Below are positions 13,401 to 42,995 of a DNA stretch of 42,995 nt, in pieces. Made by a program: the position numbers and the translations under genes. The notes beneath the pieces are model-generated. The model searched no databases. It was not told the DNA's origin and was given only the letters and a program-made list of their open reading frames with translations. Location of the stretch: IMG/VR virus record IMGVR_UViG_3300029705_000072. One strand, given 5' to 3'. Source of the DNA: a virus (Duplodnaviria; Heunggongvirae; Uroviricota; Caudoviricetes). Numbering within the stretch: position 1 is the stretch's first letter; every line of letters begins with the position of its first letter.

Positions 13401-16090
13401 TAGGAAGACGTATATTTTGACGACTCTATTAAGTCTTTCGCCGATCGATAGGCTGCGTCGCTTGCGCTTGTATTGACGGTTCTTTCTGACATATATGCAA
13501 ACGGATTTGGCGTATTGACAAAATCATTTAGATTTTTTTCCGCAGCATTCATACCGCTAATAGCATCGGTTCTAGCGTCGGCTATCTTGGCATTTATTAA
13601 TTCCAGTATAGCGTTTTTATAACTACCATACTTTTTAATCAGGGAATCAATCTGATTCTCTTCGACTCCTAGTTTGTCGATTAAGTCTTGAGTGCTATCG
13701 ATTAAGGCACGCTGAGACTCATCACTTACATCAAGTTGTTGATCGTATAAACTTATTGCTTCCTTTGATTCATTATACGCACTAACTACATCGCCAAGGC
13801 TCTTTGCGGACTCATTGCTCTCATTTATGGCTTCCTGTCTTGCTTCCTTAACACTGTTTCTATACGCACTCCACGCAGCAACAGCCAGTGTTATAGCAAT
13901 AATGACTCCGCCGAGTACCAGTTTTGTCGCAGACAGAGATGCGTTTAGTGTATTCACTCCGGTGGCCGTTGTTGTAGAAGCCGCTCCTAATGCCTGTGTA
14001 GCTGCCGCTCCTTGAGCTGCGTACGCAGAAACACCACTAACGGATGTAATTAAGTCATCGGACGCGTCTGCTACATCAGATATGCTGTTAGCGATAGCTG
14101 CTGCTCCGTTAGCAGCATTCGAAGCCGAAAATAATCCTTTTATTGCATCTATAACTGATGATACTGACGAAAATCCGTTTAGCGCATTCTTGACAGACAG
14201 TGCACCTATTACTCCGGTGATTATTGTCGGTAGTCCGCCAAGTTTATTTGTGAACTCGGCGATCGAGTTTGCTAAATTCAGTAATTCAGTTCCGAAATCT
14301 ACTACTGCTTTTACAAGATCGGAGTTTATAAGTGTCGTAGACAGTTCCTGATATGATGCCTTGAATTTAGATATCTTACCTTCGATGCTATCTAAGTACT
14401 TTTCGTTTTCAGCCAGAGCAGATCCGGTGGCATTTGCTGCTGTCTTCAAGACATTTTCAGCGACGTCAAAGTTAGATAGCAAAGACGTAATTACATTTGC
14501 GTTTCTCTTACCGCCAATGAGTTCAATTATTGCAGACTGATCGATATTGGATAGTTCGTCCCATACATCAGAAAGTTCTTTTAATACCTGATATGTAGAC
14601 TTGAATGTACTGTCGTTAATCTGAATATCTACTTTATTTCCGGTAAGTGCTAGTATCGATTCACGTAGTTCCGATACACTATTTGCCATTCCGTCAGTAC
14701 TTTCGCCAGCCTCTTCGGCCTCTACTTTGGCAGCACGAATAAACATGGAAATAGTCTTCAGTGCAGTGCCTACGGTTTCCGGGTTTTGAATGACGCTGTT
14801 TGCTGCGGTTACCAACGCAATACTTTCATTCAACTCATTGTTTGCAGACGCAAGAGCTGAAGCAGATTTCTTTAGTGCTTCGCCAATGCCTACGGACGAA
14901 ATAGCGAAATTATTGCCTACTTCGTTGAATTTATCAACAATCATCATGGCGTTCTCGGCTTCAATTCCGAATGCCTTCATGGTCGAAATGATACTCTCGG
15001 TTGCCTCGGTAATGTTATTGATGCCATCGCCTACATTTTTATAGATAATGGCCGCATCTGCTAACGAAGATGCTTCGTCTAGAGAATATCCAAGCCGAGC
15101 GAAGTCTGCGGTGGCCGTTACGACATCTGATATTGTAGTACCTAGTTGTTTAGCTCTATTCGCTGCGTTTGATAAGAACGTATCGTATGTGCTTGCTGTT
15201 TCGTCGGTAACTTTACGAAGCTCTGTCATTGCGGTGTCGATTTGACGTACCGCATCGACCATCTTTTTTACTTCTTTATATAAAAATGTAACGAGTTTTC
15301 TAGCTGTATCCCATAACGTGAATTTCTCAGCAAGCTCTGTGAGGCGATCCTTTATGGATTTCGTGTTCTTTCCAGCGGCAATAATCGCTCTGTCATACTC
15401 TCTTATATTATGTGACGCCTTTTTAATTTCATTGGAAATCCTATTGAAATCCTTTGTTGTTGTCGTCGTAGGATCCAATTCATTGAGAAGACTACTCATC
15501 TTCTCAATTTCTCTTCCTCTGGCTGCGTACATTTCTCTAGTAGACCCAAAAGCCGCTGCAGTCCAACTATTTTGCTGCTTTTGAGCCTTTTCTATTTTCT
15601 TGCTAATCCTATCATACTCACGATAGTATAGATCCATAGATACTAATTCTTGCTCCATACTATCATTCGTAGAGGATACTGCTGCACTTGTTCTGCTAGC
15701 GCTAGAGGTTTTGCCGGAAGAACTTTTCGTTCCAGAACTTACATCTCCGGCAACAATTTTACCCTCAAGAACAGAAGCAACCTGCTCTTGAAGTTTCTTT
15801 AAAGCGGGCTTAGCATTAAACTCTGAAATGGTTATCTTAAGCCCTTTTGAAATATCTTTTTTGCTATTTAGCTCGGTTAATAAATTAGTAAGGTCTAATT
15901 TGAGCCTTCTTCGCGTTTCGGCGATGTTTAGACTAAAAACTAGGCCTCTTTTTGCAACTCGCTTATCCTCGTTTAATTTCTTGACGAGTTCAGTGAGCTG
16001 ATCTTGAATAAGTTTACCGGTCTTACCGCTAAGGGCGCCACCGCCCTCCATGCCGAAAAGCAAACCTACGTCTTGCTTTCTTGTGGCCAT
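10457..16090 (-). CDS. Tail tape measure protein
   Basis: 1877 aa; TP901-type core (IDTAMTELRKVTDET...FARLGYS...NNFAISS); hydrophobic Ala/Gly segment; long helices; KKFHSGG near C-terminus. Confidence 0.95.
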   Translation of the reverse strand: MATRKQDVGLLFGMEGGGALSGKTGKLIQDQLTELVKKLNEDKRVAKRGLVFSLNIAETRRRLKLDLTNLLTELNSKKDISKGLKITISEFNAKPALKKLQEQVASVLEGKIVAGDVSSGTKSSSGKTSSASRTSAAVSSTNDSMEQELVSMDLYYREYDRISKKIEKAQKQQNSWTAAAFGSTREMYAARGREIEKMSSLLNELDPTTTTTKDFNRISNEIKKASHNIREYDRAIIAAGKNTKSIKDRLTELAEKFTLWDTARKLVTFLYKEVKKMVDAVRQIDTAMTELRKVTDETASTYDTFLSNAANRAKQLGTTISDVVTATADFARLGYSLDEASSLADAAIIYKNVGDGINNITEATESIISTMKAFGIEAENAMMIVDKFNEVGNNFAISSVGIGEALKKSASALASANNELNESIALVTAANSVIQNPETVGTALKTISMFIRAAKVEAEEAGESTDGMANSVSELRESILALTGNKVDIQINDSTFKSTYQVLKELSDVWDELSNIDQSAIIELIGGKRNANVITSLLSNFDVAENVLKTAANATGSALAENEKYLDSIEGKISKFKASYQELSTTLINSDLVKAVVDFGTELLNLANSIAEFTNKLGGLPTIITGVIGALSVKNALNGFSSVSSVIDAIKGLFSASNAANGAAAIANSISDVADASDDLITSVSGVSAYAAQGAAATQALGAASTTTATGVNTLNASLSATKLVLGGVIIAITLAVAAWSAYRNSVKEARQEAINESNESAKSLGDVVSAYNESKEAISLYDQQLDVSDESQRALIDSTQDLIDKLGVEENQIDSLIKKYGSYKNAILELINAKIADARTDAISGMNAAEKNLNDFVNTPNPFAYMSERTVNTSASDAAYRSAKDLIESSKYTSSYSSSVYSDNINVQLGAGDGSVEDARRALESYRFILDKLERAAISDSSITSTDLYKKISSFYTELSTYVKEYTSQENNKLMVDVFDAIQTQSSRMSKMLGRDLTVDDKENLAMYVRDYIGYNSKTEAQQSVLDGFIRSYIDAHLPSKEKQDGPGASYSGVVKEIDSAYDALKRLESVQLRIASIESELNKTDDLERYVDLTKELVAQYELEKEALEYIINANKAKIASKSASLAKAGIGVSYDDVTNQVVVNNQEVLSGMSEDMANDYQKIIDDIDKLAKENQEYAKQIIDGSDKIISQWNEVISKGNSLVDTAQNVYSTLSDAANEYAETGLLSVDSLQSILELGPKYLDYLTDENGMLVMDKKAVEDLIKARTEEMVVTSALSYAKQIQAAVDADNINLLKELTGQTIEATDTTWGMVYSVLQLAKVSGLAKGWSHEIFDDAHEQIKKMEALSKTAANSVGQYYANLSSGQKSQKDNIQTIFELTQEMVEWEKDQKIKAIEDELDKYREIIEAKKEMLDLTKEEEDYEKSIAEKLEEASKLQNQIDLLSLDDSREAAAKRAGLEVELGELLGEIGEMQADHSLEIQQEALDKELENYEKGKDAEIEALEESLNSAEKLYQATITRIQEGWDSLYQDLVNWNTNYGNTLQKDLESAWNSAYAAAQRYGSFIGAMNADGTTVGSSATSGAPGYTTGAFATGNTPSGTDKNVQVAADNMKANSLSWWAAADQSVYANANQEIASKHNASSDNKIEYRDGTWYGPDGKPLYTLTRDEVGNAVVSQMKANSALWGTAGADNAKLEDHNQILANRLSEYLGQPITKDGNGVWWLGNQKLYDIKKFHSGGAVGRSTLKQDEVLAILKEGESVIDESRAENMYKAVDIAEYFSKKFGKSINLSKLHALVTGRGGYSKPGLGLIPGIGNNGETSMVFSPHVEVHISHNGSMSEADAARYGRVAANSALSELKEAFTKRGVSSIGNAILK

Positions 16091-16150: not shown

Positions 16151-16765
16151 TTAGTTTTTAAAATGATGGGCGTTCGTATAATCACTTCCGATTACAACAG
16201 ATACATTCCCTTTATTTTTTGTGAGAAATTCAATTACTGATTTCTGGATAAATAGAAGAGCTTCTCGCTTAGGACGGCTCTTCATAATGACATTACCGTC
16301 ATCGTCTTCGTGCATCTTCCACATGCCACCAGAGGCACCCGTGATATCTTCGTGTCCAGCCCACGGCCCGTACACGCTTCCACTAGCGTCGGTACCGTTG
16401 TTTAGAAGCGCTACTATATTATCGACACCTTGTGGGTACTTTTTTTCATACAACGAACTTCGTCTGATTGCGCTTGGATCAAAATGAATCTGTATCTCAA
16501 AAGTACCATTACTATTCATAGTAACTGGACCCCTGGTTATAGATGATCCGACATCTCGTATTGAAGCGGGCAGGGAGCTTCGAATTATTTCAATCAGCTC
16601 ATCTGCCTGCGCTTCCATATCTTTTATGGTACGAACCTTACCACCGCCACGAAGCCTTTTGTTCCCTTTAATAGCATCTAACACGGCCTTATTGGATGCT
16701 TCTTTGATATGATTGAGATTTTGCGCCTTTGATACTTTCTTCATTAGGTCGCTTGTTGAAATCAT
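16151..16765 (-). CDS. Putative tail completion (HK97 gp10-like) or hypothetical protein
   Basis: 204 aa, NIVALLNNG...VYGPW; TAATG-coupled to upstream gene; family call tentative. Confidence 0.45.
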   Translation of the reverse strand: MISTSDLMKKVSKAQNLNHIKEASNKAVLDAIKGNKRLRGGGKVRTIKDMEAQADELIEIIRSSLPASIRDVGSSITRGPVTMNSNGTFEIQIHFDPSAIRRSSLYEKKYPQGVDNIVALLNNGTDASGSVYGPWAGHEDITGASGGMWKMHEDDDGNVIMKSRPKREALLFIQKSVIEFLTKNKGNVSVVIGSDYTNAHHFKN

Positions 16766-17370
16766 TATTTTGTCTTCCCAACTCTTTTAATTTCTTTGCG
16801 TTCGGACTTGGTCTGATCCATATACGCTTGCACGATTTTCTCCTCAGAGAATCCGCCAGAGATAACCATGCCTAACATCTTGTTCAGATCCTCTGCGTTA
16901 AAACCGTCAAGTGCGTCCGTTAGCTTATCTTGTGCGTCTACAAACTTCTGCATACTTGCCTTAATGCTGTTTGCCATGGTGTCTTTCTCAAAGGCAATTC
17001 TTTCTTCGACGGCATATTCAATATCCCAGACATCCTTGATGATATCCTTTGTAATACATTCGTACAGGCTATTGTTCATGCAGATCTCGTAAGATTCTGC
17101 AATATCTTTGGGCATGGTTAGATTAGTGTAATGAGAAATCACACCTTCTCTGACCAAAAACTTGACCAGTTCTGGTACATATGTTCCGTCTTCCAGGAAG
17201 CACGAACCAACCACATCGTTAACCAGTTCAATAAGTTCGTTCACGGTAAGCATGTTCTTGACAGTAATCTCAAGCCCGTTCCAGTTAACGGTGTGGGTGC
17301 TTTCTGGTGAATTTTCCTTGATAGCCTTTTTAAGAGCAGCAAGTGTAACCGCATTATTTTTCTTTGCCAT
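16765..17370 (-). CDS. Hypothetical protein, possible tail assembly chaperone
   Basis: 201 aa, SD AAGGAGG, upstream of TMP. Confidence 0.5.
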   Translation of the reverse strand: MAKKNNAVTLAALKKAIKENSPESTHTVNWNGLEITVKNMLTVNELIELVNDVVGSCFLEDGTYVPELVKFLVREGVISHYTNLTMPKDIAESYEICMNNSLYECITKDIIKDVWDIEYAVEERIAFEKDTMANSIKASMQKFVDAQDKLTDALDGFNAEDLNKMLGMVISGGFSEEKIVQAYMDQTKSERKEIKRVGKTK

Positions 17371-17372
17371 AT

Positions 17373-17828
17373 TTATTTTCCTCCTTTAATCCGTGCGCGC
17401 TTTTCAGCGCGTCTTAACCGCTGAGCCTCTTCGTGTTCAATCCATCCTCCATATTTGAGGACACGCACGACCCAGTAGTGTTTTATGTCAGGGTAGTTAT
17501 ACCAAAACAGCTTTCTCTTTATAGGAGCCTTCTGGTCTGGCATACCCTTTACTTCAACGACAGCCTCGGTGCCGTCGGTGTATTCAATGTAAAAATCAGC
17601 AACGTATGTAATTGGTAGAACCTTTTTACCGTTACGAACGAATTCCGGCTGAAGAATATATTTCTTCTGCATTTCGTAATTCTTTATCTCACCGCTTTCG
17701 ACGCCCGGGAGGATAACCTCCTTGTAATAATCCATTTCCATCTTGCTGTCGAAAACAACGCCGTTAAACTCACGTTGCTTGCCGTCTTTCGAGACGTTAT
17801 ACTTTGATCTTTCTTCGTTTTTATCCAT
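17373..17828 (-). CDS. DUF1064 PD-(D/E)XK nuclease family protein
   Basis: SKYN...FDSKME...Q..Y.LQ...YVADF...VEVKG...KRKLF pattern. Confidence 0.8.
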   Translation of the reverse strand: MDKNEERSKYNVSKDGKQREFNGVVFDSKMEMDYYKEVILPGVESGEIKNYEMQKKYILQPEFVRNGKKVLPITYVADFYIEYTDGTEAVVEVKGMPDQKAPIKRKLFWYNYPDIKHYWVVRVLKYGGWIEHEEAQRLRRAEKRARIKGGK

Positions 17829-17846
17829 ATCAATAGAGTAGAATAG

Positions 17847-17868
17847 GGGAGGGCGTAAACCCTCCCCG
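17847..17868 (-). terminator. Hairpin after 93-aa gene
   Basis: ggggaggg-cgtaaa-ccctcccc. Confidence 0.5.
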
Positions 17869-17886
17869 ACATCTTACATATCCGGT

Positions 17887-18168
17887 TTATTCCTCGTAGG
17901 ATTCAACTACGGGATCAACTGTTTCTTCTACAGGAATATCCTTGATTTCAGTGATAGTATCTACAACTACCTCTACATCCTTTTTCTTTTTGCTCTTCTT
18001 CTGAGCTTCAGCGGGCTTTCTGGAATCGAGAATTCTCTGCAGATAAATCTGTCCGCACTCAGGTGAACAAGAAACTTCCTGCCATCTGAACACACCGGGA
18101 GTACGTACTGCGCTTCTGCATGCTTCGTACTCCTTGCCGCAGACTCTACAAATTTTCTTTGGTGCCAT
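17887..18168 (-). CDS. Small zinc-ribbon protein
   Basis: CRVC...CSPEC; SD GGAGGTG; basic then acidic tail. Confidence 0.7.
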   Translation of the reverse strand: MAPKKICRVCGKEYEACRSAVRTPGVFRWQEVSCSPECGQIYLQRILDSRKPAEAQKKSKKKKDVEVVVDTITEIKDIPVEETVDPVVESYEE

Positions 18169-18184
18169 TATAGGTCACCTCCAA

Positions 18185-18982
18185 TTATGCAACGTCTTCG
18201 GTGTTTTCTGCGAATACGATGTAGGTCCACAGGGATCCGTTTGCACCGCAAGCACCAGCCAGGGATTCTGCAGTGAAACCATGAACGGTCTGGTCGCCGC
18301 CCATATCCAGAGAGAATTCGCCGCTGAAGTCAGCCTTAGGAATGAAGAACTGAACTCTGTACAGGTTGCTGCATACGTCTTCACCGAATGCGTCTACATA
18401 CAGAACAGCCTTCTTGGAATACTTGTCGCTGATGTTTTCCAGAACACTTGCGTTGATCTGTCTGGTGTAATATACAACCAGTTCGGTGCCGTCTTCCAGT
18501 TCGCCAGCGTTGAATTCGATGGTCTTGGTGCTGGGGGTGTAGGTGAACTTGCCAGCAGCAGTAGCATCAGCCTGGGTCATTGCAATGCTGGTAGCAACGC
18601 CGTCCTTCTTCACAACGATGTTTTCGATTTCATTGCCGGTGGTGCCAACAGCCTTGAAGCTGGTGATTGCCTTGTTTTCGGCAACGGTCAGATAATCGGT
18701 CCACAGAACAGTGGTCTTCTTATTTTCGAAAGAACCACCGGTCTGAGCTTCCATCAGGCCACCAGAAACCAGACCATTGGTGCCGGTGATGGTGACAGCC
18801 TTGTTTCTCTTCAGAGAGTTCAGTTTTCTGCCGGACTTACCGGTAATGTCAACCTTTTCTTCGGTGTTGGCGATGTTTGCATTCTGCAGTTCGTCCAGAA
18901 CGAACATCAGGTCGCCGGTCAGCACGTCGAATGCGGTGATGGTTTCAAGGCTAGTGATGGCAATATCATTTACATTTACCAT
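18185..18982 (-). CDS. Major tail (tube) protein
   Basis: 265 aa; high-expression codon bias; DELQNANIANTEEKVDITG...FIPKADFSGEFSL; follows neck genes. Confidence 0.8.
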   Translation of the reverse strand: MVNVNDIAITSLETITAFDVLTGDLMFVLDELQNANIANTEEKVDITGKSGRKLNSLKRNKAVTITGTNGLVSGGLMEAQTGGSFENKKTTVLWTDYLTVAENKAITSFKAVGTTGNEIENIVVKKDGVATSIAMTQADATAAGKFTYTPSTKTIEFNAGELEDGTELVVYYTRQINASVLENISDKYSKKAVLYVDAFGEDVCSNLYRVQFFIPKADFSGEFSLDMGGDQTVHGFTAESLAGACGANGSLWTYIVFAENTEDVA

Positions 18983-18994
18983 GATCTTTTCCTC

Positions 18995-19705
18995 CTATTT
19001 ATTTGAGAGCCAGTTCAATTCGTTCTGGCTCAGCTTTTGTGCGTCAACTGTGCCAAAATAGACGCCACGCATCTTGTTGTCATAGTCGACCTTTTTAATG
19101 ACTTGTCGAACGCTCGCGTTAAACTGATAGATTGAGAGTTCTCGTGTCCCCTCGAACCCATATTTGTATTGCTCTGCGTTTACCATTGCGACAATCAATT
19201 CTTCGAGCTGCGAGTCTCTGCGTCGGTTTTTATTCCGTTTCATCTTTGTTCTCGCTCGCTCAATCATGAAGTTACGCGCAGCCGCATTGGCTGGCTTTTT
19301 TGTGTTCTTTTCAAAATGATGTATCTTCCGCAGGGTATCAGCGATTGCGGCGTGAACCGCTCTGTTTATCTGAACCCCTGTGGATTTATTAAGCAAATAA
19401 GGCTTTCCGTCTTCTTCTACCAGCTCAAAGCCTTTTAGATCAAGGTCTCCGAAAATCATAGAGGTGTCGCTTTCTCTAAGCTCGCCGAAGAGCATTAAAA
19501 AAAGCTCATACTCATTGATTTCGGAAAAATCAATTCCGATATCATCGAGCTGAACCATTAGGTCTATGGGCATCGCGGTAATAAGGGTAACGGTTTGATA
19601 GTAAGCATCCTCATTGTCTAGGATTTCACCGACTGTAGGGATCATTATGCTAATCTGTTCTGTTACCGGGACGGAGCTCTTGTACAGGATGTTTGTCGTC
19701 TTCAT
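18995..19705 (-). CDS. Tail assembly/neck-associated protein
   Basis: 236 aa, conserved position before tail tube; LSIYQF...YFGTVD. Confidence 0.55.
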   Translation of the reverse strand: MKTTNILYKSSVPVTEQISIMIPTVGEILDNEDAYYQTVTLITAMPIDLMVQLDDIGIDFSEINEYELFLMLFGELRESDTSMIFGDLDLKGFELVEEDGKPYLLNKSTGVQINRAVHAAIADTLRKIHHFEKNTKKPANAAARNFMIERARTKMKRNKNRRRDSQLEELIVAMVNAEQYKYGFEGTRELSIYQFNASVRQVIKKVDYDNKMRGVYFGTVDAQKLSQNELNWLSNK

Positions 19706-20214
19706 ACGCCTTTCTTCCTGTTGCTTGGAATTTCTTTGCTATTCGGACCCGGTCTGTTAAACTCGCTGGCCGTAAATGTGAGCACCTTGCCCTGATAATC
19801 TGCAATTGGAGCGAATCTCCGAGATGATTTTAAGTCAAGGGTTCCCAAACCGTACACACGGCTACCGTTGATTAGTTTACTGATTTCGCTTACTATCTTG
19901 TCCACACGGACACCGCCTTCTGGAAGGCGCATTTTGCTTTTATGCGTAAACACCCAAATATAAAGAATTGGGTTGAGATACGTTTTACTTAGAACTCTTT
20001 CCACATCCACGTCACAGCAAATGTATGTCTGCGCGTGTTCTGTGGTTTCTGGTATGTACTCATACGGAAAAACTTGTGAGTACATTAACTCACCCGGATC
20101 TGCAATATCTCTACCGTCATCGTTCAGTAGACGAACGATGATTGGACTGGTAAGCAGGTCTTCGGCGAGTTGGTTTTTATAATCGAAAAAATCTCCGAGG
20201 TGCATTAGATCCAC
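19702..20214 (-). CDS. Putative tail terminator protein
   Basis: 170 aa; position after head-closure gene. Confidence 0.5.
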   Translation of the reverse strand: MDLMHLGDFFDYKNQLAEDLLTSPIIVRLLNDDGRDIADPGELMYSQVFPYEYIPETTEHAQTYICCDVDVERVLSKTYLNPILYIWVFTHKSKMRLPEGGVRVDKIVSEISKLINGSRVYGLGTLDLKSSRRFAPIADYQGKVLTFTASEFNRPGPNSKEIPSNRKKGV

Positions 20215-20966
20215 ACCTTCTTCCCGCCCTGGGTATCAGGGGTTGTTTCTTGTTCTGGCTCGGATTCGCCCGTACCTTCTTTTGGGAAGTACTTATAGTA
20301 GTCCGCAATATGGAGTTCGAAGTTGTCATCCGATTCTGTATTGCATTCAGCCAGAACGAACTTGAATACACCAGCGTTATTGAAAACACCATTTAACTTA
20401 AACGGCTTCGTAAGGCGATAGGAGAGAACGTGGTCTGATCCGTAGTCGCCAATTAAGAAGCGGCTGTTTCTGTCAAAATGCAGTGTGTATTCGTCACGCG
20501 GAATGGTCATAGCTACACGCGAGTCACCGCGTCTCATGATGAAGTCGTTGTTGGTGTATTCGCCGATCATGTACTTAGTACCATCCTCGATGATGCACCA
20601 TCGCTCCTGAATGGTACCGTCTTTTGCAATCCAACGAAGATAGTAGTTACACTGCTGCATTTTTGCCTTTGTGTATACTTCGTTGTTAGCATCAAGCTCT
20701 GTAATAATCCAGTAGCTGTCCATCCAATGAACAAGTCCGCCGTGAGGTAATGTTTCTCCTGGCATGCTACACAGCGTTTTGATATCAAGATTGTCACTGT
20801 TTATAATAGCCAGTTCGCGTTCCTCTCCGTCAATCACCGCGTGGTGATAGGAGAGATGTCTGGGAAGTTGTGCTTCTAAAAACCGCTGCTCTCTTCTAAG
20901 CACCGATTCTCTGCCGGATCCACCTCGCGTTCTCATACGAGAAGAGTAGGTGTCCCATACATTCAC
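20205..20966 (-). CDS. Putative head closure / head-tail adaptor
   Basis: 253 aa beta-rich; synteny. Confidence 0.5.
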   Translation of the reverse strand: MNVWDTYSSRMRTRGGSGRESVLRREQRFLEAQLPRHLSYHHAVIDGEERELAIINSDNLDIKTLCSMPGETLPHGGLVHWMDSYWIITELDANNEVYTKAKMQQCNYYLRWIAKDGTIQERWCIIEDGTKYMIGEYTNNDFIMRRGDSRVAMTIPRDEYTLHFDRNSRFLIGDYGSDHVLSYRLTKPFKLNGVFNNAGVFKFVLAECNTESDDNFELHIADYYKYFPKEGTGESEPEQETTPDTQGGKKVWI

Positions 20967-33551: not shown

Positions 33552-34322
33552 TTAGTTTTTTAAAAGTTCACGATGTCGCATAACCGAGTTGATTCTCTGC
33601 TTTGTTCCGACTTCGACGGCGCAAGCCGGGCAGTACTTCTGGTGTCTACCCTTTGATTGATCACGTCTCTTCAATGTTATACCGCAGTTCTCACACTCAA
33701 AATACTCACCAAGTCCGTAATACTTGTGGTACTGGTGACCCAGGTTTCGGAAGTCGCTTATATGTAATTCGGTTTCATCGTCGCCCATGAAGAGCACCTG
33801 CACATTAAGGTTGTCAATCTTCTTGGAGAACTTTATGAAACCCAGTTCTCTCAGCTCGTTAAACATGAGCCCCTGACGCTTGATTGACGTGTTGATGTTT
33901 GCCATCTGCATGATTTCGTTATCCGGAGTGTTTACCCAGTGGTTGTTTTTCTCGGACGCAGCGTCCCAATACTTCGCCACACACAGCAGCGTAAACGCAA
34001 GCCTGCGGAGCTGAATGCCATCCAACATGCTTATCTTTTCCAGTTCACTCTTGGTAATGTTCACTCCGTCCAACTGAATGCACGGGTACTTTATTGAATT
34101 CTTTGCAATACGGTCTAGCGTATCGGACCAATGCACTAGTGATGCATTCGGATCGCATTGAAGTAGGAAGGAATCCAAAAGGCTTCTAACTTCTTTCTTG
34201 CTGTACTGATTCTCGTAGTAGTATTTAGCAACACGATTAAGTGTCTCTGTTGGTTTGCGACCAAGGTCGCGATTGTCTATCATGGCTTCCGCCCATTCAT
34301 ATTCGTTAAGAACTATACTCAT
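33552..34322 (-). CDS. Hypothetical protein with winged-helix-like segment and C-terminal Zn finger
   Basis: CENC...YCPAC; TAATG-coupled to RNAP stop. Confidence 0.75.
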   Translation of the reverse strand: MSIVLNEYEWAEAMIDNRDLGRKPTETLNRVAKYYYENQYSKKEVRSLLDSFLLQCDPNASLVHWSDTLDRIAKNSIKYPCIQLDGVNITKSELEKISMLDGIQLRRLAFTLLCVAKYWDAASEKNNHWVNTPDNEIMQMANINTSIKRQGLMFNELRELGFIKFSKKIDNLNVQVLFMGDDETELHISDFRNLGHQYHKYYGLGEYFECENCGITLKRRDQSKGRHQKYCPACAVEVGTKQRINSVMRHRELLKN

Positions 34323-35425
34323 TAAATCTCTCCCATTTTTACCGTCTTTAGACTAAATCTTTCGCCACCAAAGTAAATGTCTCCGTCTGGATCCATGGTG
34401 GGGAAGGTTATCTCGTTGTTATTTCTATCAAGCAGCGCTTCGATGATTTCATCTCCACAAATCTCCCAGGCAAAACGCTTTGTGCCGTTGCGTCCGTAGC
34501 AGAGATCAAGAATTATGTTACAAAGAGCATATCTATTGGTGCAAATTTTGTTACACTCCTGTATGAACTCGTTTCGCATATCCACTAACTTCTGATAGGA
34601 TTCGTCGGCTTCCAAGCGTTCGTAATTGGCGAACACCGCATAGCTTCTAAGTCTCTTACTATACCCCTCGTACAAACGCATTATGGCGCTGTACTGACTC
34701 TTGCTATATTCGGCGTCGTTCTTCATGATTGTGTAATCGAACTCAACAGATGCATTTCTGCGTCCAAGATATCTATCGAACTCTCTTTCAAACCGTCGGC
34801 ATATGCGGTTCATAACACAATTGTTTGTGCTTACCGGCATACTGCTGTTGTAATACCGTATAAACTCGCGCTGTCTTTCGGTTAAATTCTCTGGCGGAAT
34901 CGCCATCAGCTCTTCCACGTTCATCTGGAATTCTCTGATTGCGTTCTTGTTCGTGTTCTTTATGTATGTGTTGTACTGCTTCATGAGAGCAGGGTATATG
35001 ATTCGCATAAAGTACGGCTTCTTATCCGCAACAATCTTTTGATAGAAATGTCGTTTCTCTGGATCTTCGATTTTGTTTGCTGCATGACGGTCGTGCCATT
35101 CCTTTGGCATGGGCTGTGCTATAATGCCTTTTGCCTTGTCGATCGCGTTCTGCTGAAAAAGCTGACCGCATTTAATTCTGTAATCCAGCTCGTTATACTC
35201 AGGGCTTCCTTTTTCGTACTGTGCTTGCACGTCGAACATGGAAGTGATCCAATTTGTTGTCTTGCCGATATCGTCACCGAAACTTGCCATATTCGAGGAG
35301 ATCAAATGGTCTTCGGTTACGATTACTTTCTTTGCTTTGCGCTGAACGCACATGATTGCGGGTAGTTCTTTTAGATTTCTCACCAAAACATCATTGTCGG
35401 TGAGCATAACTAGATCCCCGTCTTT
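34322..35425 (-). CDS. yonO: YonO-like single-chain RNA polymerase, exon 2
   Basis: Starts AAA GAC GGG GAT (KDGD) right after intron terminal G; 367 aa to stop. Confidence 0.88.
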   Translation of the reverse strand, partial: KDGDLVMLTDNDVLVRNLKELPAIMCVQRKAKKVIVTEDHLISSNMASFGDDIGKTTNWITSMFDVQAQYEKGSPEYNELDYRIKCGQLFQQNAIDKAKGIIAQPMPKEWHDRHAANKIEDPEKRHFYQKIVADKKPYFMRIIYPALMKQYNTYIKNTNKNAIREFQMNVEELMAIPPENLTERQREFIRYYNSSMPVSTNNCVMNRICRRFEREFDRYLGRRNASVEFDYTIMKNDAEYSKSQYSAIMRLYEGYSKRLRSYAVFANYERLEADESYQKLVDMRNEFIQECNKICTNRYALCNIILDLCYGRNGTKRFAWEICGDEIIEALLDRNNNEITFPTMDPDGDIYFGGERFSLKTVKMGEI

Positions 35426-36443
35426 CCTTAATACCACATGTCACCATGTGGAGTAGACTATCTCATAACGTCACTATGTGACGTCCTGGGCGCTTCCCGC
35501 CCTGGAATCTCACCAGGACAGTACCCGGTTCATCGGCGTGCCATTCGGTTTAGCCTGTATCCGGTAGTCGTTACACCTTACCACTAGTTTCCCAGCGGTC
35601 TTGGCACGGTATTGTCTGTATTATGTCTATTCAAAACGAAATCTGTATCCAAGATACATTGTGTTGTTTTTAGCGGCTCTTGAAATATGAGCAGATACAT
35701 TATATGGGTGCCTAGACATAGTTGCCCCAGAAGAAATAAGGTGCTCTGCACACTCTTTTATGTACCCGAAACTTATTTCGGTACCGTCGCTAGTTATCAT
35801 TGTAACTGGAGTAGATCGTCCGTTCTTGATTCCTGGCCTTGATTGCTTCTGAATGGACAGTTCGCGGTTCTCTGCGTACTTTTTATGTAGAACGCTATTG
35901 CCGTAATTTGGATTATTCTTGCCAGCCATCGGCCTTGTTTGTGTTACATGTCTTTGATGTGACATTGTATGGTGGATATTTTCAATGCGCGTTGTCCACT
36001 CTAGATTACTCGGCGTATTGTTTAGTCTATTGAAATCTATGTGATTGACTTCTGCGCCGCAAAAATATCCGTCGAGGTAAGTAAGCGCAACGAGCCTATG
36101 AACAAAAAATTCCTTGCGATGGCCATTTTTTGAAAGGCGAACTTTTGCATATCCGTCGTCATTGATTACTTGCTTAATAATACGACCTTTTCTTACGGCA
36201 CTCTGTCCGTCCGATCTTGTTACGAGTCGATCAACGCCAGATACTACTCCAGTGTCGCTTATCTGATACCACCCCTCGTATCCGGGTATATCTTTCCAGA
36301 CCATACCAACACCTCCTTTCTATAATAGTTGAATAGATTGTTGTTTACAGATTTTTACCGTTAGCGGCCTCGCGGCCACACCCTGCATGTGCAAGTTCAC
36401 CCAGTTTTCACTACGCCATCACTGGCGTAGGCGACAAATGTTT
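35426..36443 (-). mobile_element. Group I intron (1018 nt) with homing endonuclease, in RNAP active-site codons
   Basis: P1 CGAU|AA with UUGUCG; P3 CUGGGUG/CGCCCAG; P4 ACGGU/ACCGU flanking the ORF; P7 GACUA/UAGUC; P9 CCACAUG-GUGA-CAUGUGG; terminal G 35426. Confidence 0.92.
35627..36304 (-). CDS. Intron-encoded NUMOD4-HNH homing endonuclease
   Basis: WKDIPGYEGWYQIS (NUMOD4); VHRLVA...VNHIDFNRLNN..NLEWTT..EN (HNH); NUMOD1-like C-terminus; SD AAGGAGGTG. Confidence 0.92.
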   Translation of the reverse strand: MVWKDIPGYEGWYQISDTGVVSGVDRLVTRSDGQSAVRKGRIIKQVINDDGYAKVRLSKNGHRKEFFVHRLVALTYLDGYFCGAEVNHIDFNRLNNTPSNLEWTTRIENIHHTMSHQRHVTQTRPMAGKNNPNYGNSVLHKKYAENRELSIQKQSRPGIKNGRSTPVTMITSDGTEISFGYIKECAEHLISSGATMSRHPYNVSAHISRAAKNNTMYLGYRFRFE

Positions 36444-38069
36444 ATCGGCTCCATTCAGCGCGTGGGCGGCAGTATCCCACGAATTCATAATCGTACACGT
36501 ATTCATGTACTGATACCACTTGCTTGCCTCGTCGCTTCTGTGCGGACGAACAAGCCTAATATTATTGTGGCAGGTCATTGGAGCACGGTAGCACGCGAGC
36601 TTCTCCGCGTTACCCGAGCACCAGTATTCGTTGTAGATTTCTCCCGCCTTCAAAAGTCCGGTAACCTCTAGCCCGAAAATGCTCTGGCAAAGAGAGTAGG
36701 GGTCTCCGGATATGATCGAATAGTTGCCGTGGACTTTAAGTACCCCCACCTTAGCTTCGTCTATTCGATTGCGGATCATATGGAATATCTTTTCCTGTAC
36801 GAAAGAGTCGTTCATCATCTCCGGCTCTATCATGATCGCCTTGATGAAGTCGTTCTGCAGACGGTCTATATTATCCTCGGTCATCCCGAACCCGCGAAGG
36901 AATAGGGCGGTCTTGTTGATGTCCGCGTAGAGCACATCCTTGATTTCGTCCATGGTGGGAGCAATAAGCTCTTCGATATCGTCATCGGTAAGGTCGTAAC
37001 TCTGAATGAACTGGTAGTTTAGAGCACGTTCTTTTTCAAGTTCCTTCGGGCAGGTCTTGGCGACGCCGAACGAATAACCGTTCTCGTGGCAGTTTCTCAG
37101 GTAATCGTCGCAGCTCTCGTAACTATCCCATAACTTCAACATGGAAGTGGTTAGAATCATTTCAACATTTCTAATGTCTACCTCGTTGCCCCAGGCGTCT
37201 CGCACAATATACTCTCCGGCAACCTCTTCGGCAAAGCGGTGGAAGTCAAAGGTGAACACCATTCCTTTTTCCCATGAATTTCTGGTGTTCGCTCCGGCGA
37301 TCATGTAGTCCAGATTAAGTTCACGGCTCCAACGTTCGGCTAGGGCAGGGGCGATAAGTCCATATCCGTCTGATTCATCCAATTCGATATCGTAGTCCTT
37401 CATCTCCTTCATGATTGGTTCGTATGTGCCTTCGTCGTTCAGATAAATAACGTCTGATTTAAATGAGGTCTCACAGTCGTTCACCACCAGAATCCCGTTG
37501 GGATCTGATACCGGTATGGACGCGCTGCAGGTAAGTGCCTTATACGCTTCGAGCTTGGCTGGTACCAGTTCTTTGGAAAGGTCTCTTCCGTTATCTATCC
37601 GCCGTCTGATTTCATCTATATGTCGCTCGCTCACAAACACTATCGTTCTGGTCTTTACACCGCCGTTAGTGCCGAGCAGCCTCTTGTACTTGATGCCGTT
37701 TACGAAGAAACCCAGACACGCTCTCGCGTAGTCCTTATCCTTGTCCATGATTACGCACATATAATCCGGCTTGAACTGCAGTTCATCCAGCTTGGTATAC
37801 AGCGCCTTGACCTGCTTGCGGTTCTTTGGGCTATTGGGTTCCTTACGCAGTCTTTTGATTTCGGACTTGATTTCCCTGGCGGCTTCATCCGCGTCGGTAA
37901 TTCCGTTCAGCTCGTCTAACCATCTTAAAACCTGGCTGTCGGCGAGAGATATAACCTCGTCGTTCTTTCTGGCCTCCGCGATAGGGAGGGTAAGTCTCCA
38001 CTTGGCTTTGCGTAGCCGGCTGCTGTGGAGTTTGAATATATACTTTTGGCACGCTAGTTGTTTAGCCAG
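36444..38069 (-). CDS. yonO: YonO-like single-chain RNA polymerase, exon 1
   Basis: Double-psi-barrel motifs SDGYGLI, R...KG, YRAP; ends NGAD; start placed at CTG 38069 (SD GAGGTG); alternative GTG 38168. Confidence 0.85.
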
Positions 38070-38118
38070 TGCAACCACCTCGCTTTCTTGTTGCACAAAA
38101 AATAAAAAAGACGCGTTT

Positions 38119-38310
38119 TTACTGGTAGATTCCTTCTTGGTATTGGAACCATTCTCTGTAAAATTCACGTCTTTGTGTTTCTATGTAATCGTCCTCGTCG
38201 AATTCTTCGCTCAGCGGACTGAGATATTTACACTCTTCTGCGACCCGGCATAGGTATTCTTCGGGGCAGTCGTAGCATTTACGGCCTCTTGGCTTAATTG
38301 ATTTTCTCAT
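38119..38310 (-). CDS. Small Cys-rich protein (63 aa)
   Basis: SD AAGGAGG, TAATG-coupled to helicase; CYDC...C...C. Confidence 0.75.
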   Translation of the reverse strand: MRKSIKPRGRKCYDCPEEYLCRVAEECKYLSPLSEEFDEDDYIETQRREFYREWFQYQEGIYQ

Positions 38311-39881: not shown

Positions 39882-39900
39882 TATTCAGTTGTCAAGGTAC
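39882..39900 (-). promoter_or_regulatory. boxA-like element GTACCTTGACAACTGAATA
   Basis: 18/19 identical to 41321-41339 on the opposite strand; no -10 box at sigma-A spacing; function inferred. Confidence 0.55.
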
Positions 39901-39914
39901 GAGAGGGTGAGGTC

Positions 39915-40742
39915 TTACTGCGCTACAACTGCTTCAGCCTCATATAAATTACTATCTAACAAGTAGTTACAAGTTGTACTACCAAGATTCAGTTTACGGT
40001 ACGCTTCATCAATTTCTTCACTGGTGATACCAATATAGTCAAGGGTTTGACCGGAAGATGAATGACCAAATATCTTTTGCAGCAACAGAAGCTTTCGAGG
40101 ATCGTTACCACTCATTACCATCTGGTGATAACCGAAGGTTTTACGAAGAGTATGAGTAGATACTTTAGCACCGATACCTAACTCTTCGGCAATGCCTTTC
40201 AAGATACGATCGATAGAGTTACGATGAATCGGTTCGTTACCGGTGGCGTTAACACTTTCGGAACGGAACAGGTAATCATCAAGTCTCACACCAGGAGTAT
40301 TCTCCAGGTAAAGAGTAACTGCTTCGACTACAGCATTATTTATAGTAATGTAACGATTACGCTTTGTCTTTCTGGTGTTACTTGTTTTTTTCTCCAAAAT
40401 GGGGAAGGACTGCCGAAAGGCAAAATGTTCATTGATCAGCTGGGAGAAGCGAAGTGTTCTAAGGTCACTTACACGAAGACCGAAGTTGATTCCTACAATG
40501 AACAGCATATTGTCACGGTATCTCTTGTTGTCGATCAGGTATTTGGAGATGCGTAAAATATCTTCCATACTCTTGATCGGTTCAGCTTTGTGCTCAGTTA
40601 CTACATCGATATGAACTTCCGAAGCAGCAGGAGCTATGATACCGGATCTCAGTTTTCTGTTGTTTTCTTTTAGACTGGAGATGTCGATGGCGCCAGAAGC
40701 GGCTGTACGATTACTGAAGTCTACACGAATGACGTTTGTCAT
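39915..40742 (-). CDS. Tyrosine recombinase (catalytic-domain type)
   Basis: GINFGLRVSDL, EKKT, HTLRKTFGYH, FGHSS...TLDYIG; SD GGAGGTG. Confidence 0.92.
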   Translation of the reverse strand: MTNVIRVDFSNRTAASGAIDISSLKENNRKLRSGIIAPAASEVHIDVVTEHKAEPIKSMEDILRISKYLIDNKRYRDNMLFIVGINFGLRVSDLRTLRFSQLINEHFAFRQSFPILEKKTSNTRKTKRNRYITINNAVVEAVTLYLENTPGVRLDDYLFRSESVNATGNEPIHRNSIDRILKGIAEELGIGAKVSTHTLRKTFGYHQMVMSGNDPRKLLLLQKIFGHSSSGQTLDYIGITSEEIDEAYRKLNLGSTTCNYLLDSNLYEAEAVVAQ

Positions 40743-40810: not shown

Positions 40811-41207
40811 GCGATTTTTAAAAATAAATTAAAAAATAGGGTACTGACAAAATACAACCAAAATAACACGTCTGACGCAAAGCTTTTAGCGCTGTTATCG
40901 AATATTTAAAACAAAATAAAGAGAAGCAAAAAATAAAAATCACCGGATCCGATGCTTGATGATGGGATTTCTGGTGATCTTTTTTACACGTGGAAAAAGC
41001 GTTGAAATTTGAACGAGTTTGAAAAAGGGGGAGGCTTGGGAGATGGAGTCACTACGGAGCAGTAAGACGGGATAAGGGTGGCCGCAGACCATAACCACCC
41101 CCATCTGTGTTGCATTCCGCAGAATTGCACACCAACGGAACGGCGAAAAGGTGGGCAAGATGGCGAAAAAAGTTCCGTGCGGCATGGCTTGAATTGAAAT
41201 CAGGGTA

Positions 41208-41236
41208 TTGACGGAACATGGCGGCTATGGTAGTGT
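41208..41236 (+). promoter_or_regulatory. Candidate sigma-A promoter for the rightward arm
   Basis: TTGACG, 17 bp, extended -10 TGgTAGTGT. Confidence 0.5.
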
Positions 41237-41320
41237 ATGAAGTGAGAAAAGGCCACTCACCCACCCACCCACCACAGCCGCTCACCACGGCAAGGGCAAG
41301 GCTCACAGCCACAGGCCACC

Positions 41321-41339
41321 GTACTTTGACAACTGAATA
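41321..41339 (+). promoter_or_regulatory. boxA-like element GTACTTTGACAACTGAATA
   Basis: Partner of 39882-39900; lies between candidate promoter and first gene. Confidence 0.55.
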
Positions 41340-41350
41340 CAGAAGTTAAA

Positions 41351-41389
41351 ACACAAGAAAAGCCCGTCAAGACACCACCATGACGGGCT
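41351..41389 (-). terminator. Hairpin in leader; terminator for antisense (minus) transcription
   Basis: agcccgtca-N11-tgacgggct preceded on + by an A-rich run. Confidence 0.55.
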
Positions 41390-41423
41390 AAGGTCCACGG
41401 ACCACCACAGAAAGGAAAAGACC

Positions 41424-42803
41424 ATGAACAACAACAGAGTAACACAGAACACTACCACCGTCAACCGCTTTGAAGAGGCAAAGGCCGCCTTTGAAAAGGC
41501 TTACAGCCGCTTTGTAAAGGATGGCACGGATTGCACGGCCGAATTGATGACACTTGCCGAAGCCGTGGCCCGTTCCGTTGTAAACAAGTGTATCGACCCA
41601 CAGCGCAAGACCGCCGCACAGCGCGACACCATCAGCAACAACGGACACAGCCCGGCTCTGGTGGCCATCCGCCGCGACATCCGCAATGACCTCGCCGCGC
41701 TCGAAACCGTGGCAAGACTTGCCGAAGAAGAGGCCGAAGCCGTAGCCGCAGACTCCGCCGCCGCCGCTGTACATAGAGGAGCCAAGAAAGCCCTTGCCAA
41801 GGCAAAGGAAGAAGCCGAAGCCGCCGCCAAAGCCGCCATTGATGGCAAGACGGACAAGGGCAAGACCGCCGCCCTAAAGCGCGCCAAAGCCGCCGAAGCC
41901 CTTGCCGCTAAGCGTGCCGCCGCCGCACACGCCGAAGCCGTACGCAAGACCGAAGCCATGACCAAGGCCATGCGAGAACGGCTTGGGGATGGTATCGACC
42001 TTGTAAACGAAGCCGCCGCCGCCCTGTGGGAATTGGCCGCGGAACACGCGGGCCGCAGAGGATGGCTCGACCGCGATTATCTTGTACGCGTACTTTCTCG
42101 CCGCGTGTTCGTCAGCATGGACACACAGCCCGAATGGAAAGAGCGCGAAACCTGTGCCATGACCGAAGCAACTCGCGCCGTTCGCAGACTCGTAAGCAAC
42201 ACCGCCGCCGTGCATACCGACCCGAAAAATTCCTACTCTTATATCGAAGACCTTGCCGACGATGAAGAGGGAAACGGGCTTGAAGTCATTTACAGAAGAC
42301 TCGGCAAATTCTCCGACCTTGGCGGCACGGATTCCAACGGGAATTATACCGCCGACGAAGCAAGCGCGCGTCTTGTCGATTCCGTTGTTGCTTCCATCGG
42401 TATGACCGCCACCGAAGCCCGCGCTTTGGCTCTCCGCCTTGCCGGGTGTGGCGTAGAAGAAACCGCCCGCCGCATGGGAGTTAATTCGCGAACTACCCGT
42501 TTCCATCTGCAGAACATCGGCCGCAAACTGGTAGCATGGGCAAAGGCCGGAGAAACCGCCGAAGCCGAAACTATCATTTCCGCACTCGAATCCGCACACC
42601 TTGACGAACTTGACACCGCCGAAGCGCAGGGCAAGGCTCGCCCCGTTGTTCAGTACACCATGGATGGGAAAGAAGTAGCCGCGTACGGCTCTGCCGCCGC
42701 CGCCGCTTTTGATACTGGAATCAACAAAGGCAGTATTTCCGCCGCCGCAAGCGGCAAGCGCGAAAGCGCGGGCGGCTTCCGTTGGAAGTACATGGAATTT
42801 TAG
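41424..42803 (+). CDS. Sigma-factor-like HTH protein with Ala/Lys/Glu-rich insert and C-terminal NUMOD1 domain
   Basis: SD GAAAGGA; TEARALALRLAGCGVEETARRMGVNSRTTRFHL (region-4/LuxR-type HTH); RPVVQYTMDG...ISAAASGKRESAGGFRWKY (NUMOD1). Confidence 0.65.
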   Translation: MNNNRVTQNTTTVNRFEEAKAAFEKAYSRFVKDGTDCTAELMTLAEAVARSVVNKCIDPQRKTAAQRDTISNNGHSPALVAIRRDIRNDLAALETVARLAEEEAEAVAADSAAAAVHRGAKKALAKAKEEAEAAAKAAIDGKTDKGKTAALKRAKAAEALAAKRAAAAHAEAVRKTEAMTKAMRERLGDGIDLVNEAAAALWELAAEHAGRRGWLDRDYLVRVLSRRVFVSMDTQPEWKERETCAMTEATRAVRRLVSNTAAVHTDPKNSYSYIEDLADDEEGNGLEVIYRRLGKFSDLGGTDSNGNYTADEASARLVDSVVASIGMTATEARALALRLAGCGVEETARRMGVNSRTTRFHLQNIGRKLVAWAKAGETAEAETIISALESAHLDELDTAEAQGKARPVVQYTMDGKEVAAYGSAAAAAFDTGINKGSISAAASGKRESAGGFRWKYMEF

Positions 42804-42810
42804 AACATCG

Positions 42811-42842
42811 AAAAACAGCCCTTTGCGGGGCTGTTTTTTTTA
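42811..42842 (+). terminator. Bidirectional intrinsic terminator
   Basis: aaaaacagccc-tttgcg-gggctgttttttttt. Confidence 0.9.
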
Positions 42843-42995
42843 TTGCCGTGTAAATTCTTGTCCGTGCCCGTTTCGTCGCTCTGCGGGGAGATTTTAGGGC
42901 TTTACGGACACCAAACACCGACCCACACGGGCAAGCACAGCCACACAGCAGGGCTTCCCCCCGGGTTGCACGGTACACGGTGGAAACACCGACCC

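Follow-up and report, generated by a model that had tools for sequence, protein, structure and literature searches.

The last 2 kb of a 42,995-nt stretch of phage DNA are completely free of five short words, GATC, AGCT, CTAG, GCWGC and CCWGG, that are frequent in the rest of the sequence. This stretch, here called the window, comprises bases 14226–57220 of the linear IMG/VR record IMGVR_UViG_3300029705_000072 (Caudoviricetes; 57,238 nt, called G000; CheckV completeness 48%). The site-free island (40980–42995), which is cut off by the contig end, includes the predicted promoter, leader and coding sequence of a 459-amino-acid (aa), Ala-rich predicted regulator (41424–42803, plus strand). Our comparison with related phages revealed that the purge is a conserved island of about 3 kb at the first rightward gene and not a feature of a whole genome arm. 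We infer that selection purged short restriction palindromes from this region, with restriction as the probable agent, and give an even chance to the reading that it represents a restriction-proof immediate-early launch module.

The counts agree with an earlier reading of the sequence alone (the sequence-only reading), which had reported that GATC, AGCT, GCWGC and CCWGG vanish from the last ~2 kb despite being frequent elsewhere; CTAG is lost as well. All five words are at zero in the 2016 nt of the island, compared with totals of 164 GATC, 150 AGCT, 113 GCWGC, 53 CCWGG and 66 CTAG in the full window. Outside the island, sites are tolerated in the 57-kb record (209 GATC, 192 AGCT, 144 GCWGC, 70 CCWGG and 90 CTAG), which also holds 25 GGWCC. 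The mean spacing of the five motifs across the record is 81 nt, and the longest gap without any of them is the island itself, with at least 2038 nt up to the contig end versus 422 nt for the runner-up. Based on mono-, di- and maximal-order Markov models, the tetramers missing from the 2016 nt (6 of 256) include CCAG, for which 13 copies were expected, as well as AGCT, CTAG and GATC with 7.1 expected copies each. Other words that had been described as present, namely GGCC, CCGG, GCGC and TCGA, do occur (13, 4, 13 and 8 times), and the two spot values given for GC content (39/60 and 18/60) are exact. Overall, the GC content climbs from ~0.45 to 0.57–0.65 in the island, and the AT skew reaches +0.3 to +0.6.

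Codon usage alone, which the sequence-only reading had named as a competing explanation, does not produce this pattern. Permuting the synonymous codons of the 459-aa open reading frame, which alters neither the encoded protein nor the codon usage of the gene, yields an expectation of 20.1 sites (GATC 3.7, AGCT 4.1, CTAG 1.6, GCWGC 7.7 and CCWGG 3.0), and the lowest of 5000 shuffles had 9 sites, compared with none in the actual gene. The avoidance can be seen at codon junctions: none of the 22 GCA (13) and GCT (9) codons stands before a codon starting with GC, and no C-ending codon is found ahead of CAG, though 46% of the codons end in C. Likewise, every Ala-Ala pair (28/28) begins with GCC, as had been observed for the pairs checked earlier, whereas the pairs of the 1877-aa structural gene start with GCA (12), GCT (11), GCG (6) or GCC (4). 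The depletion is thus confirmed to be real and independent of codon usage.

Homologues of the regulator (31–46% identity, mostly ~317 aa) are syntenic in Logan and ENA contigs and in 56 IMG/VR loci, and an identical copy of the protein, again next to the recombinase gene, was found on independent JGI, ENA and Logan contigs. These relatives are SPbeta-like phages of Oscillospiraceae with genomes of ~115–130 kb, which carry Pfam domains named for SPbeta proteins (YonV_C, YonG and YonJ) and an HU-like gene. For family-wide codon shuffles, the loci were reduced to 25 non-redundant representatives. Summed over their regulator genes, observed versus expected counts were 1/49 for GATC, 2/54 for GCAGC, 1/20 for GCTGC, 4/33 for CCTGG, 2/25 for CCAGG and 3/29 for GGACC. 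The near-complete losses therefore concern palindromic words in both strand forms, and the joint loss of GCAGC with GCTGC and of CCAGG with CCTGG indicates that the constraint acts on duplex DNA. Three leftward control genes showed observed/expected (O/E) ratios of 1.0–1.2 for GCWGC and AGCT in the same type of analysis; in the recombinase-fold family, both words are at expectation.

The positional profile of the relatives delimits the island. GCWGC, CCWGG and GATC are nearly absent from about −300 to about +2500 relative to the start codon, and the same stretch has an 8–10% higher GC content and an AT skew of ~+0.3; its left edge is sharp and its right edge fades. Under a dinucleotide null, O/E ratios in the island versus the 8.7-kb upstream flank were 0.05 versus 1.18 for GCWGC, 0.10 versus 0.66 for CCWGG, 0.53 versus 1.17 for AGCT and 0.50 versus 1.24 for CCGG. 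GATC, GGWCC and CTAG are low in island and flank alike, and GATC is missing from the island even in seven lineages that keep ~2–4 copies per kb genome-wide. Moreover, the purge extends beyond a single gene: the non-coding leader and spacer are purged as well, and the next rightward gene (249 aa, 54–93% conserved) is half-purged, with 7 of 20 expected GCWGC and 8 of 60 expected GATC in codon shuffles. An origin as a foreign insertion, also raised in the sequence-only reading, disagrees with the synteny and purge kept in 25 diverged relatives and with the site-rich host chromosome. In the complete relatives G001 and G004, the island is again the longest site-free gap. The earlier term "rightward arm" was therefore an overstatement, as the purge spans only ~3 kb in the relatives.

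Two further features of composition accompany the island. Most relatives (the 123-kb G001, G006 at C39:1-53000, L009 and most IMG/VR loci) carry no GATC, CTAG or GGWCC over 50–120 kb, and some have no CCWGG; these genome-wide sets of avoided words vary by lineage, and the island is purged in all of them. In addition, the top strand is T-poor and A/C-rich in both 40980–41423 and 41424–42803, as it is from −250 to +1250 in the relatives, whose non-coding leaders contain CACCAACACC-type runs. Restriction avoidance does not account for this strand bias, for which a U-poor, unstructured early mRNA is one possibility. An enrichment of GGCAAG/CTTGCC and TTGCAA was considered as a Chi-like or binding motif, and is better understood as a by-product of avoiding CTG/CAG words (TTG-CAA for Leu-Gln and CTT-GCC for Leu-Ala).

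An alignment with eight relatives allowed us to predict a host sigma-A/sigma-70-type promoter for the regulator gene (41208–41236, plus strand), with the −35 element TTGACG at 41208–41213, a 17-nt spacer and the extended −10 element TGgTAGTGT at 41228–41236, of which the −10 proper occupies 41231–41236. TTGAC and TG-n-TA are kept in 8/8 aligned relatives, the consensus being TTGACA-N14-TGnTAnnnT (TTGACA-N14-TGCTATAAT in L033); the promoter of the window scores under the threshold of a simple promoter scanner. It is followed by a C/A-rich, U-poor 5′ leader (41245–41423, plus strand) that, from the sequence and the relatives' alignment, has two small hairpins ahead of the ribosome-binding site. 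An intrinsic terminator (42816–42841, plus strand), a stem CAGCCC...GGGCTG followed by eight T residues, is predicted 3′ of the gene, and the regulator gene of L009 is likewise followed by a hairpin and a T-run. The conserved promoter and the intrinsic terminator suggest transcription of the module by unmodified host RNA polymerase. Furthermore, invariant alignment columns mark conserved non-coding elements (GAGATGGAGTCACTAC, 41040–41055, plus strand) 5′ of the promoter and a conserved hairpin carrying ACCATAACCACCCCC (41076–41102, plus strand), both within the purge, which could be operator or packaging signals.

The regulator itself is a fast-diverging protein (27–42% identity among relatives) compared with the recombinase-fold gene (65–70%) and the RNA polymerase (34322–38168; 57–77%), and its codon usage is shifted toward that of the host beyond every other long gene of the window. 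Pfam, PHROGs, the homologue alignment, an AlphaFold2 (AF2) model and Foldseek together point to a conserved N-terminal helical domain, a lineage-specific Ala/Glu/Lys coiled-coil insert at about aa 98–185, a sigma-70 region 4/LuxR-type helix-turn-helix at aa 327–370 and a NUMOD1-type C-terminal DNA-binding tail at aa 406–441. In Pfam, the helix-turn-helix stays below the cut-offs for Sigma70_r4_2 (17.8 versus 25.7 bits) and GerE (17.9 versus 23.5 bits), and no match to sigma-70 region 2 was obtained; phrog_3512, annotated as a sigma factor, matches with an E-value of 1e-4. Many sigma chains were retrieved by Foldseek with the AF2 model (mean predicted local distance difference test score, pLDDT, 70), but at E-values of 0.1–1 and template modelling (TM) scores of ~0.1–0.2. 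The top Foldseek match was 1u3e (I-HmuI; E 0.027), and phrog_20162, the DNA-binding tail of HNH endonucleases, matches aa 400–458 (E 7.8e-10); NUMOD1 (PF07453) reaches 21.7 bits, below its cut-off of 22.8. The NUMOD1 tail occurs in only some relatives. We therefore describe the protein as a putative sigma-like helix-turn-helix regulator and do not claim membership in a family. For gene B, the second island gene of the relatives, a confident model was obtained (pLDDT 84); it had no known structural relative, matched only uncharacterised gut-phage proteins and gave an empty protein atlas search. The downstream genes had no Pfam or PHROG function.

In the reading as a launch module, the unit would consist of a promoter for host RNA polymerase, the leader and the gene of the fast-evolving, sigma-like helix-turn-helix regulator, joined in relatives by a spacer with repeats and non-coding RNAs and by one further gene. 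Right after infection of a new host, this DNA would have to remain uncut and serve as a template for transcription while still unmodified, and selection would keep it free of the 4–5-bp palindromes that host Type II restriction-modification systems cut. A cut inside the module would always be fatal; sites elsewhere would be tolerated, either because that DNA is exposed later or because it is protected or repaired once the program runs. Removal of ~20 out of several hundred sites helps only if sites here matter more than elsewhere. The module would be expressed first, and would either enter first or have the later DNA protected. Two models fit, staged exposure as in T5 and T7 or a race of the top regulator before cutting, and a positional hint, drawn by analogy, favours staged exposure. 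That the island itself is the first DNA to enter the cell, again by analogy, appears doubtful to us, though worth considering. The restriction-proof leading region proposed in the sequence-only reading is supported by the loss of palindromes on both strands, which selection against Type II sites would produce, and by a unit with a host-type promoter that heads the rightward genes; the arm is replaced by an island.

Several points weigh against the launch-module reading. The relatives assemble as circles or prophages, and those labelled as having direct terminal repeats (DTR) are circles too, whose ends overlap by 44 and 55 nt, so that no fixed end is shown. Headful packaging of the SPbeta type would create redundant and partly permuted ends, a poor fit to staged entry; by the same analogy, the packaging site would lie a few kb away and the first-entering terminal redundancy would carry sites. 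SPbeta itself has no such island. The timing of expression is deduced from the predicted promoter alone, and expression from the prophage could apply instead. Neither Pfam nor PHROGs revealed an anti-restriction gene, a check that the sequence-only reading had proposed together with a search for phage methyltransferases, and no methyltransferase was identified in four complete relatives. Finally, the island gene and a control gene do not differ in their depletion of 6-bp palindromes (O/E 0.63 versus 0.61 in codon shuffles). An island-specific depletion of such palindromes, which the dinucleotide null had hinted at, was accordingly rejected; only CTGCAG and AAGCTT remain, weakly.

The closest competitor dispenses with any order of entry: the whole genome would enter at once, and only a cut in the gene of the first regulator would block the program, with other cuts tolerated or mended by ligation, recombination or nuclease inhibition once it runs. 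This race at the top of the cascade fits every sequence observation, needs no fixed genome end and thus suits the circular assemblies and SPbeta-like headful packaging, and the phage does have an SbcD/Mre11-type exonuclease and replication genes of its own. However, hundreds of sites lie elsewhere, among them 144 GCWGC and 209 GATC in 57 kb. Repair of a genome cut so often seems unlikely unless a dedicated protector helps, and no such protector was found; moreover, the graded fade with distance is more naturally positional. We consider this explanation unlikely. A smaller probability still is assigned to insulation from methylation, in which the switch region would be spared Dam-, Dcm- and TseI-like words so that regulator binding, promoter activity or packaging signals ignore the methylation state of the previous or current host. 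The avoided palindromes are also targets of methyltransferases, of which the hosts carry several C5 types, and the island holds conserved non-coding elements, a promoter and repeat arrays. Yet the purge covers 1.0–1.4 kb of coding sequence plus the next gene, far past any binding site, and many unrelated specificities are avoided together, which makes this explanation improbable.

Avoidance at the RNA level, where the early transcript would shun words cut by a sequence-specific endoribonuclease, would agree with the strongly U-poor, A/C-rich top strand including the leader, and with the window's CCAG count of 0 versus 6.0 expected, compared with 3 versus 5.9 for its complement CTGG (codon shuffle). 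We nevertheless regard it as very improbable, because the near-complete losses are palindromic, with both strand forms gone (GCAGC 2/54 and GCTGC 1/20; likewise CCAGG and CCTGG), and because the purge begins ~230 nt 5′ of the promoter, presumably outside the transcript. The abrupt jump in GC content lies next to an integrase-family gene and close to where the metagenomic contig ends, and some short contigs carry the regulator gene alone. Both could indicate an artefact or foreign DNA (chimeric assembly, flanking host DNA, recent horizontal insertion, or codon or amino-acid bias), but this has hardly any credibility left. The same junction is present in independent JGI, ENA and Logan assemblies, synteny is conserved in more than 50 loci, and the true prophage–host junction lies ~53 kb away in a host metagenome-assembled genome (MAG), where the avoided sites are plentiful on the host side; these observations rule out chimeric assembly, flanking host DNA and recent insertion, and the codon shuffles rule out codon or amino-acid bias. 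Two other candidates were rejected. A "memory" of a GCWGC-avoiding ancestor, acquired through module exchange, does not apply since no lineage avoids GCWGC genome-wide. Decay by deamination of 5-methylcytosine should affect the entire genome and enrich the coding strand in T, yet this strand is T-poor; nor can such decay remove GATC.

Eight of the loci lie in MAGs, mainly from Oscillospiraceae and other Clostridia. In a 187-kb MAG contig, the phage part has a GC content of 0.48 and no GATC, GGWCC or CTAG; the host DNA, which starts ~53 kb from the gene, has a GC content of 0.60–0.67 and contains GATC, GCWGC, CCWGG and AGCT at 3–10 per kb. The raised GC content of the island is host-like, but a segment taken over from such a chromosome would have brought these sites with it. 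A host-derived sequence is therefore rejected; the codon usage of the regulator is only intermediate between phage and host. The host MAGs of the relatives encode between 1 and ~10 C5-methyltransferases and no DpnII-family enzyme. In four complete relatives, no methyltransferase of PF00145, PF01555 or PF02086 was detected, so that these phages appear to rely on avoidance. The relatives also carry large tRNA arrays on both sides of the junction (L025:1234-1721 and 16711-20376; L040:1386-1741 and 13541-14687; L011), which fits phages with a GC content of ~0.48 (0.5–0.6 at third codon positions, GC3) that grow in hosts with a GC content of 0.60–0.67 (GC3 0.79).

Downstream of the terminator, a perfect tandem array of 71-nt units begins at 42913 (42913–42995, plus strand; second unit from 42984), of which another assembly contains at least 2.5 units. 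Arrays also follow the regulator gene in relatives, with two to three 58-nt units or four 92-nt units (L005:1497-1780; L009:11033-11262; L025:11010-11139; L040:11027-11452), and one copy of a core unit (ACAGGGTACACCCCTTGCGG-like) is found ~150–200 nt 5′ of the start codon as well. Possible functions include iterons, terminase-binding sites or an injection stop. The record stops 18 nt past the window end; among 52 related loci, 20 likewise break off no more than 300 nt 3′ of the regulator gene. Perfect tandem repeats of 58–92 nt account for these breaks, and we therefore rejected contig ends as physical genome ends; repeat units likewise explain an N-gap in the L009 scaffold and the 44-nt "terminal repeat" of G010. 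Four short JGI contigs (L004, L005, L006 and L007; 1.6–1.8 kb) carry the regulator gene alone; they start in the leader, two of them at window position 41307, and run into the tandem repeats at the other end. Co-occurring strains with differing flanks may have the island in common, or its coverage may differ. In the relatives, the spacer between the regulator gene and gene B contains the Rfam motifs RAGATH-16 and RAGATH-4, and RAGATH-36 is located ~2 kb beyond (L009:11351-11422 and 11598-11728; L025:11228-11299, 11475-11605 and 13886-14042; also L011 and L040), all well above the gathering thresholds. By their position, these orphan RNAs appear to belong to the early region of this family, within or beside the island. 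An Rfam search of the window's own island gave no match.

On the other side of the junction, the minus strand encodes a leftward late operon with the large terminase, portal and virion proteins, the SbcD-like exonuclease and two tyrosine-recombinase-fold genes, as annotated with Pfam and PHROGs. Its first gene, which is unpurged and divergent from the regulator gene, the sole rightward gene of the window, encodes a 275-aa protein with a tyrosine-recombinase fold (39915–40742, minus strand; PF00589, 3.7e-18; phrog_216), for which a promoter scan predicts a strong promoter (40810–40782, minus strand). Three inverted-repeat pairs flank this gene and the promoter region (39882–39901/41320–41339, 39495–39514/40937–40956 and 39785–39801/40997–41013). 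The best pair, 20 nt with 95% complementarity, has one arm just 3′ of the recombinase-fold gene (39882–39901) and the other in the rightward leader (41320–41339); boxA-like elements have been suggested, and an invertible switch is another possibility. A DNA search among phage GenBank records gave no match to the window, and a single-protein search of IMG/VR returned no close relatives.

Local avoidance of sites in first-acting DNA is already known for T5, T7-like phages and the leading regions of plasmids. New are the setting in common temperate SPbeta-like gut phages, as an island in the middle of the map at a divergent junction, and the two-tier pattern of genome-wide and island-only words, which is kept over deep divergence and linked to orphan RNAs and orphan proteins. 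We found no description of such an island and no name for this phage family in the literature searched. Where sites are avoided locally rather than genome-wide, the phage cannot tolerate a cut in the DNA concerned, so that the first-acting part of a phage not yet in culture can be located from its sequence alone. Predictions of host range from restriction sites counted across entire genomes can also be wrong. In the present case, the pattern singles out a 3-kb module, comprising a regulator, a protein of orphan fold and the RNA motifs RAGATH-16 and RAGATH-4, in a large family of Clostridia phages that is common in human and animal guts, one homologue cluster alone having more than 3000 member sequences. 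A tentative extension, which we think is less probable than its negation, is a two-tier design in these widespread temperate Oscillospiraceae phages: some words would be purged genome-wide and a broader set in the ~3-kb module, which would act or enter first and switch on a broad-spectrum protection of the remaining 110+ kb. Candidate protectors would be the sigma-like protein, the orphan-fold gene B and the RAGATH-16 and RAGATH-4 RNAs. If true, the RAGATH orphan RNAs would gain a biological context, and the logic of the staged T5 infection would extend to a temperate family that has SPbeta, a headful packager, as its model relative.

Among known phages, SPbeta invites comparison with this family. 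It shares the operon of a single-chain RNA polymerase with YonV/YonG/YonJ-type genes, the HU-like gene, the divergent junction beside the polymerase gene and a helix-turn-helix regulator as the first rightward gene, but has no island at yonR, and its YonV is on the other side of the junction. The SPbeta group also carries a multispecific methyltransferase. None was found in the four complete relatives examined here. The junction in SPbeta (AF020713, L105) is a 950-bp gap at 64110–65061 between a minus-strand late operon (yonP, yonO onward) and the plus-strand yonR-yop genes, again without a compositional or site-free island. Packaging of SPbeta starts in this divergent yonP|yonR junction beside the RNA polymerase gene, with little permutation (10.1101/2021.11.22.469490; AF020713). 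This junction corresponds to the one beside the island, and the analogy is the sole pointer to the order of entry.

At the level of the regulator, a parallel is offered by the SPO1 gp28 type. Sigma-like early regulators are known from phages, with SPO1 gp28 as an example. As in that case, a helix-turn-helix of the sigma region 4 type could allow an early protein to redirect the RNA polymerase of the host; unlike gp28, the protein described here has Pfam scores below the cut-offs, no detected region 2 and Foldseek E-values of 0.1–1, and membership is not established. For the island as a whole, T5 offers a precedent: it resists restriction if its first-step-transfer region is without sites, and a repeat-rich non-coding region borders this segment (PMC10644984; 10.1101/866236). 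Tequintaviruses and the phages described here share a site-free, fast-evolving early block of a few kb that is driven by host promoters, with sites elsewhere and a repeat-rich non-coding region after it. T5, however, is a virulent phage with a proven two-step injection, and a 10-kb terminal repeat at a defined physical end contains its block, whereas the family described here is temperate, has its island mid-map beside a divergent junction and assembles as circles. In Murciavirus, the leading region decides restriction sensitivity, and the location of a motif counts rather than the total number (PMC12455610). This region is also highly variable between relatives in these T7-like Autographiviridae, as is the case here. 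The Murciavirus result is experimental and concerns a Type I system and a genome end drawn in by transcription; in our phages, the avoided words are palindromes of the Type II kind, and sequence comparison provides the evidence. Palindrome avoidance on a genome-wide scale, as seen in many phages, is shared by most relatives, which are without GATC, CTAG and GGWCC and show O/E ratios of ~0.6 for many 6-bp palindromes. What sets them apart from such genome-wide avoidance is a second, local tier, in which GCWGC, CCWGG, AGCT and other words that the genome still carries are avoided within a confined ~3 kb.

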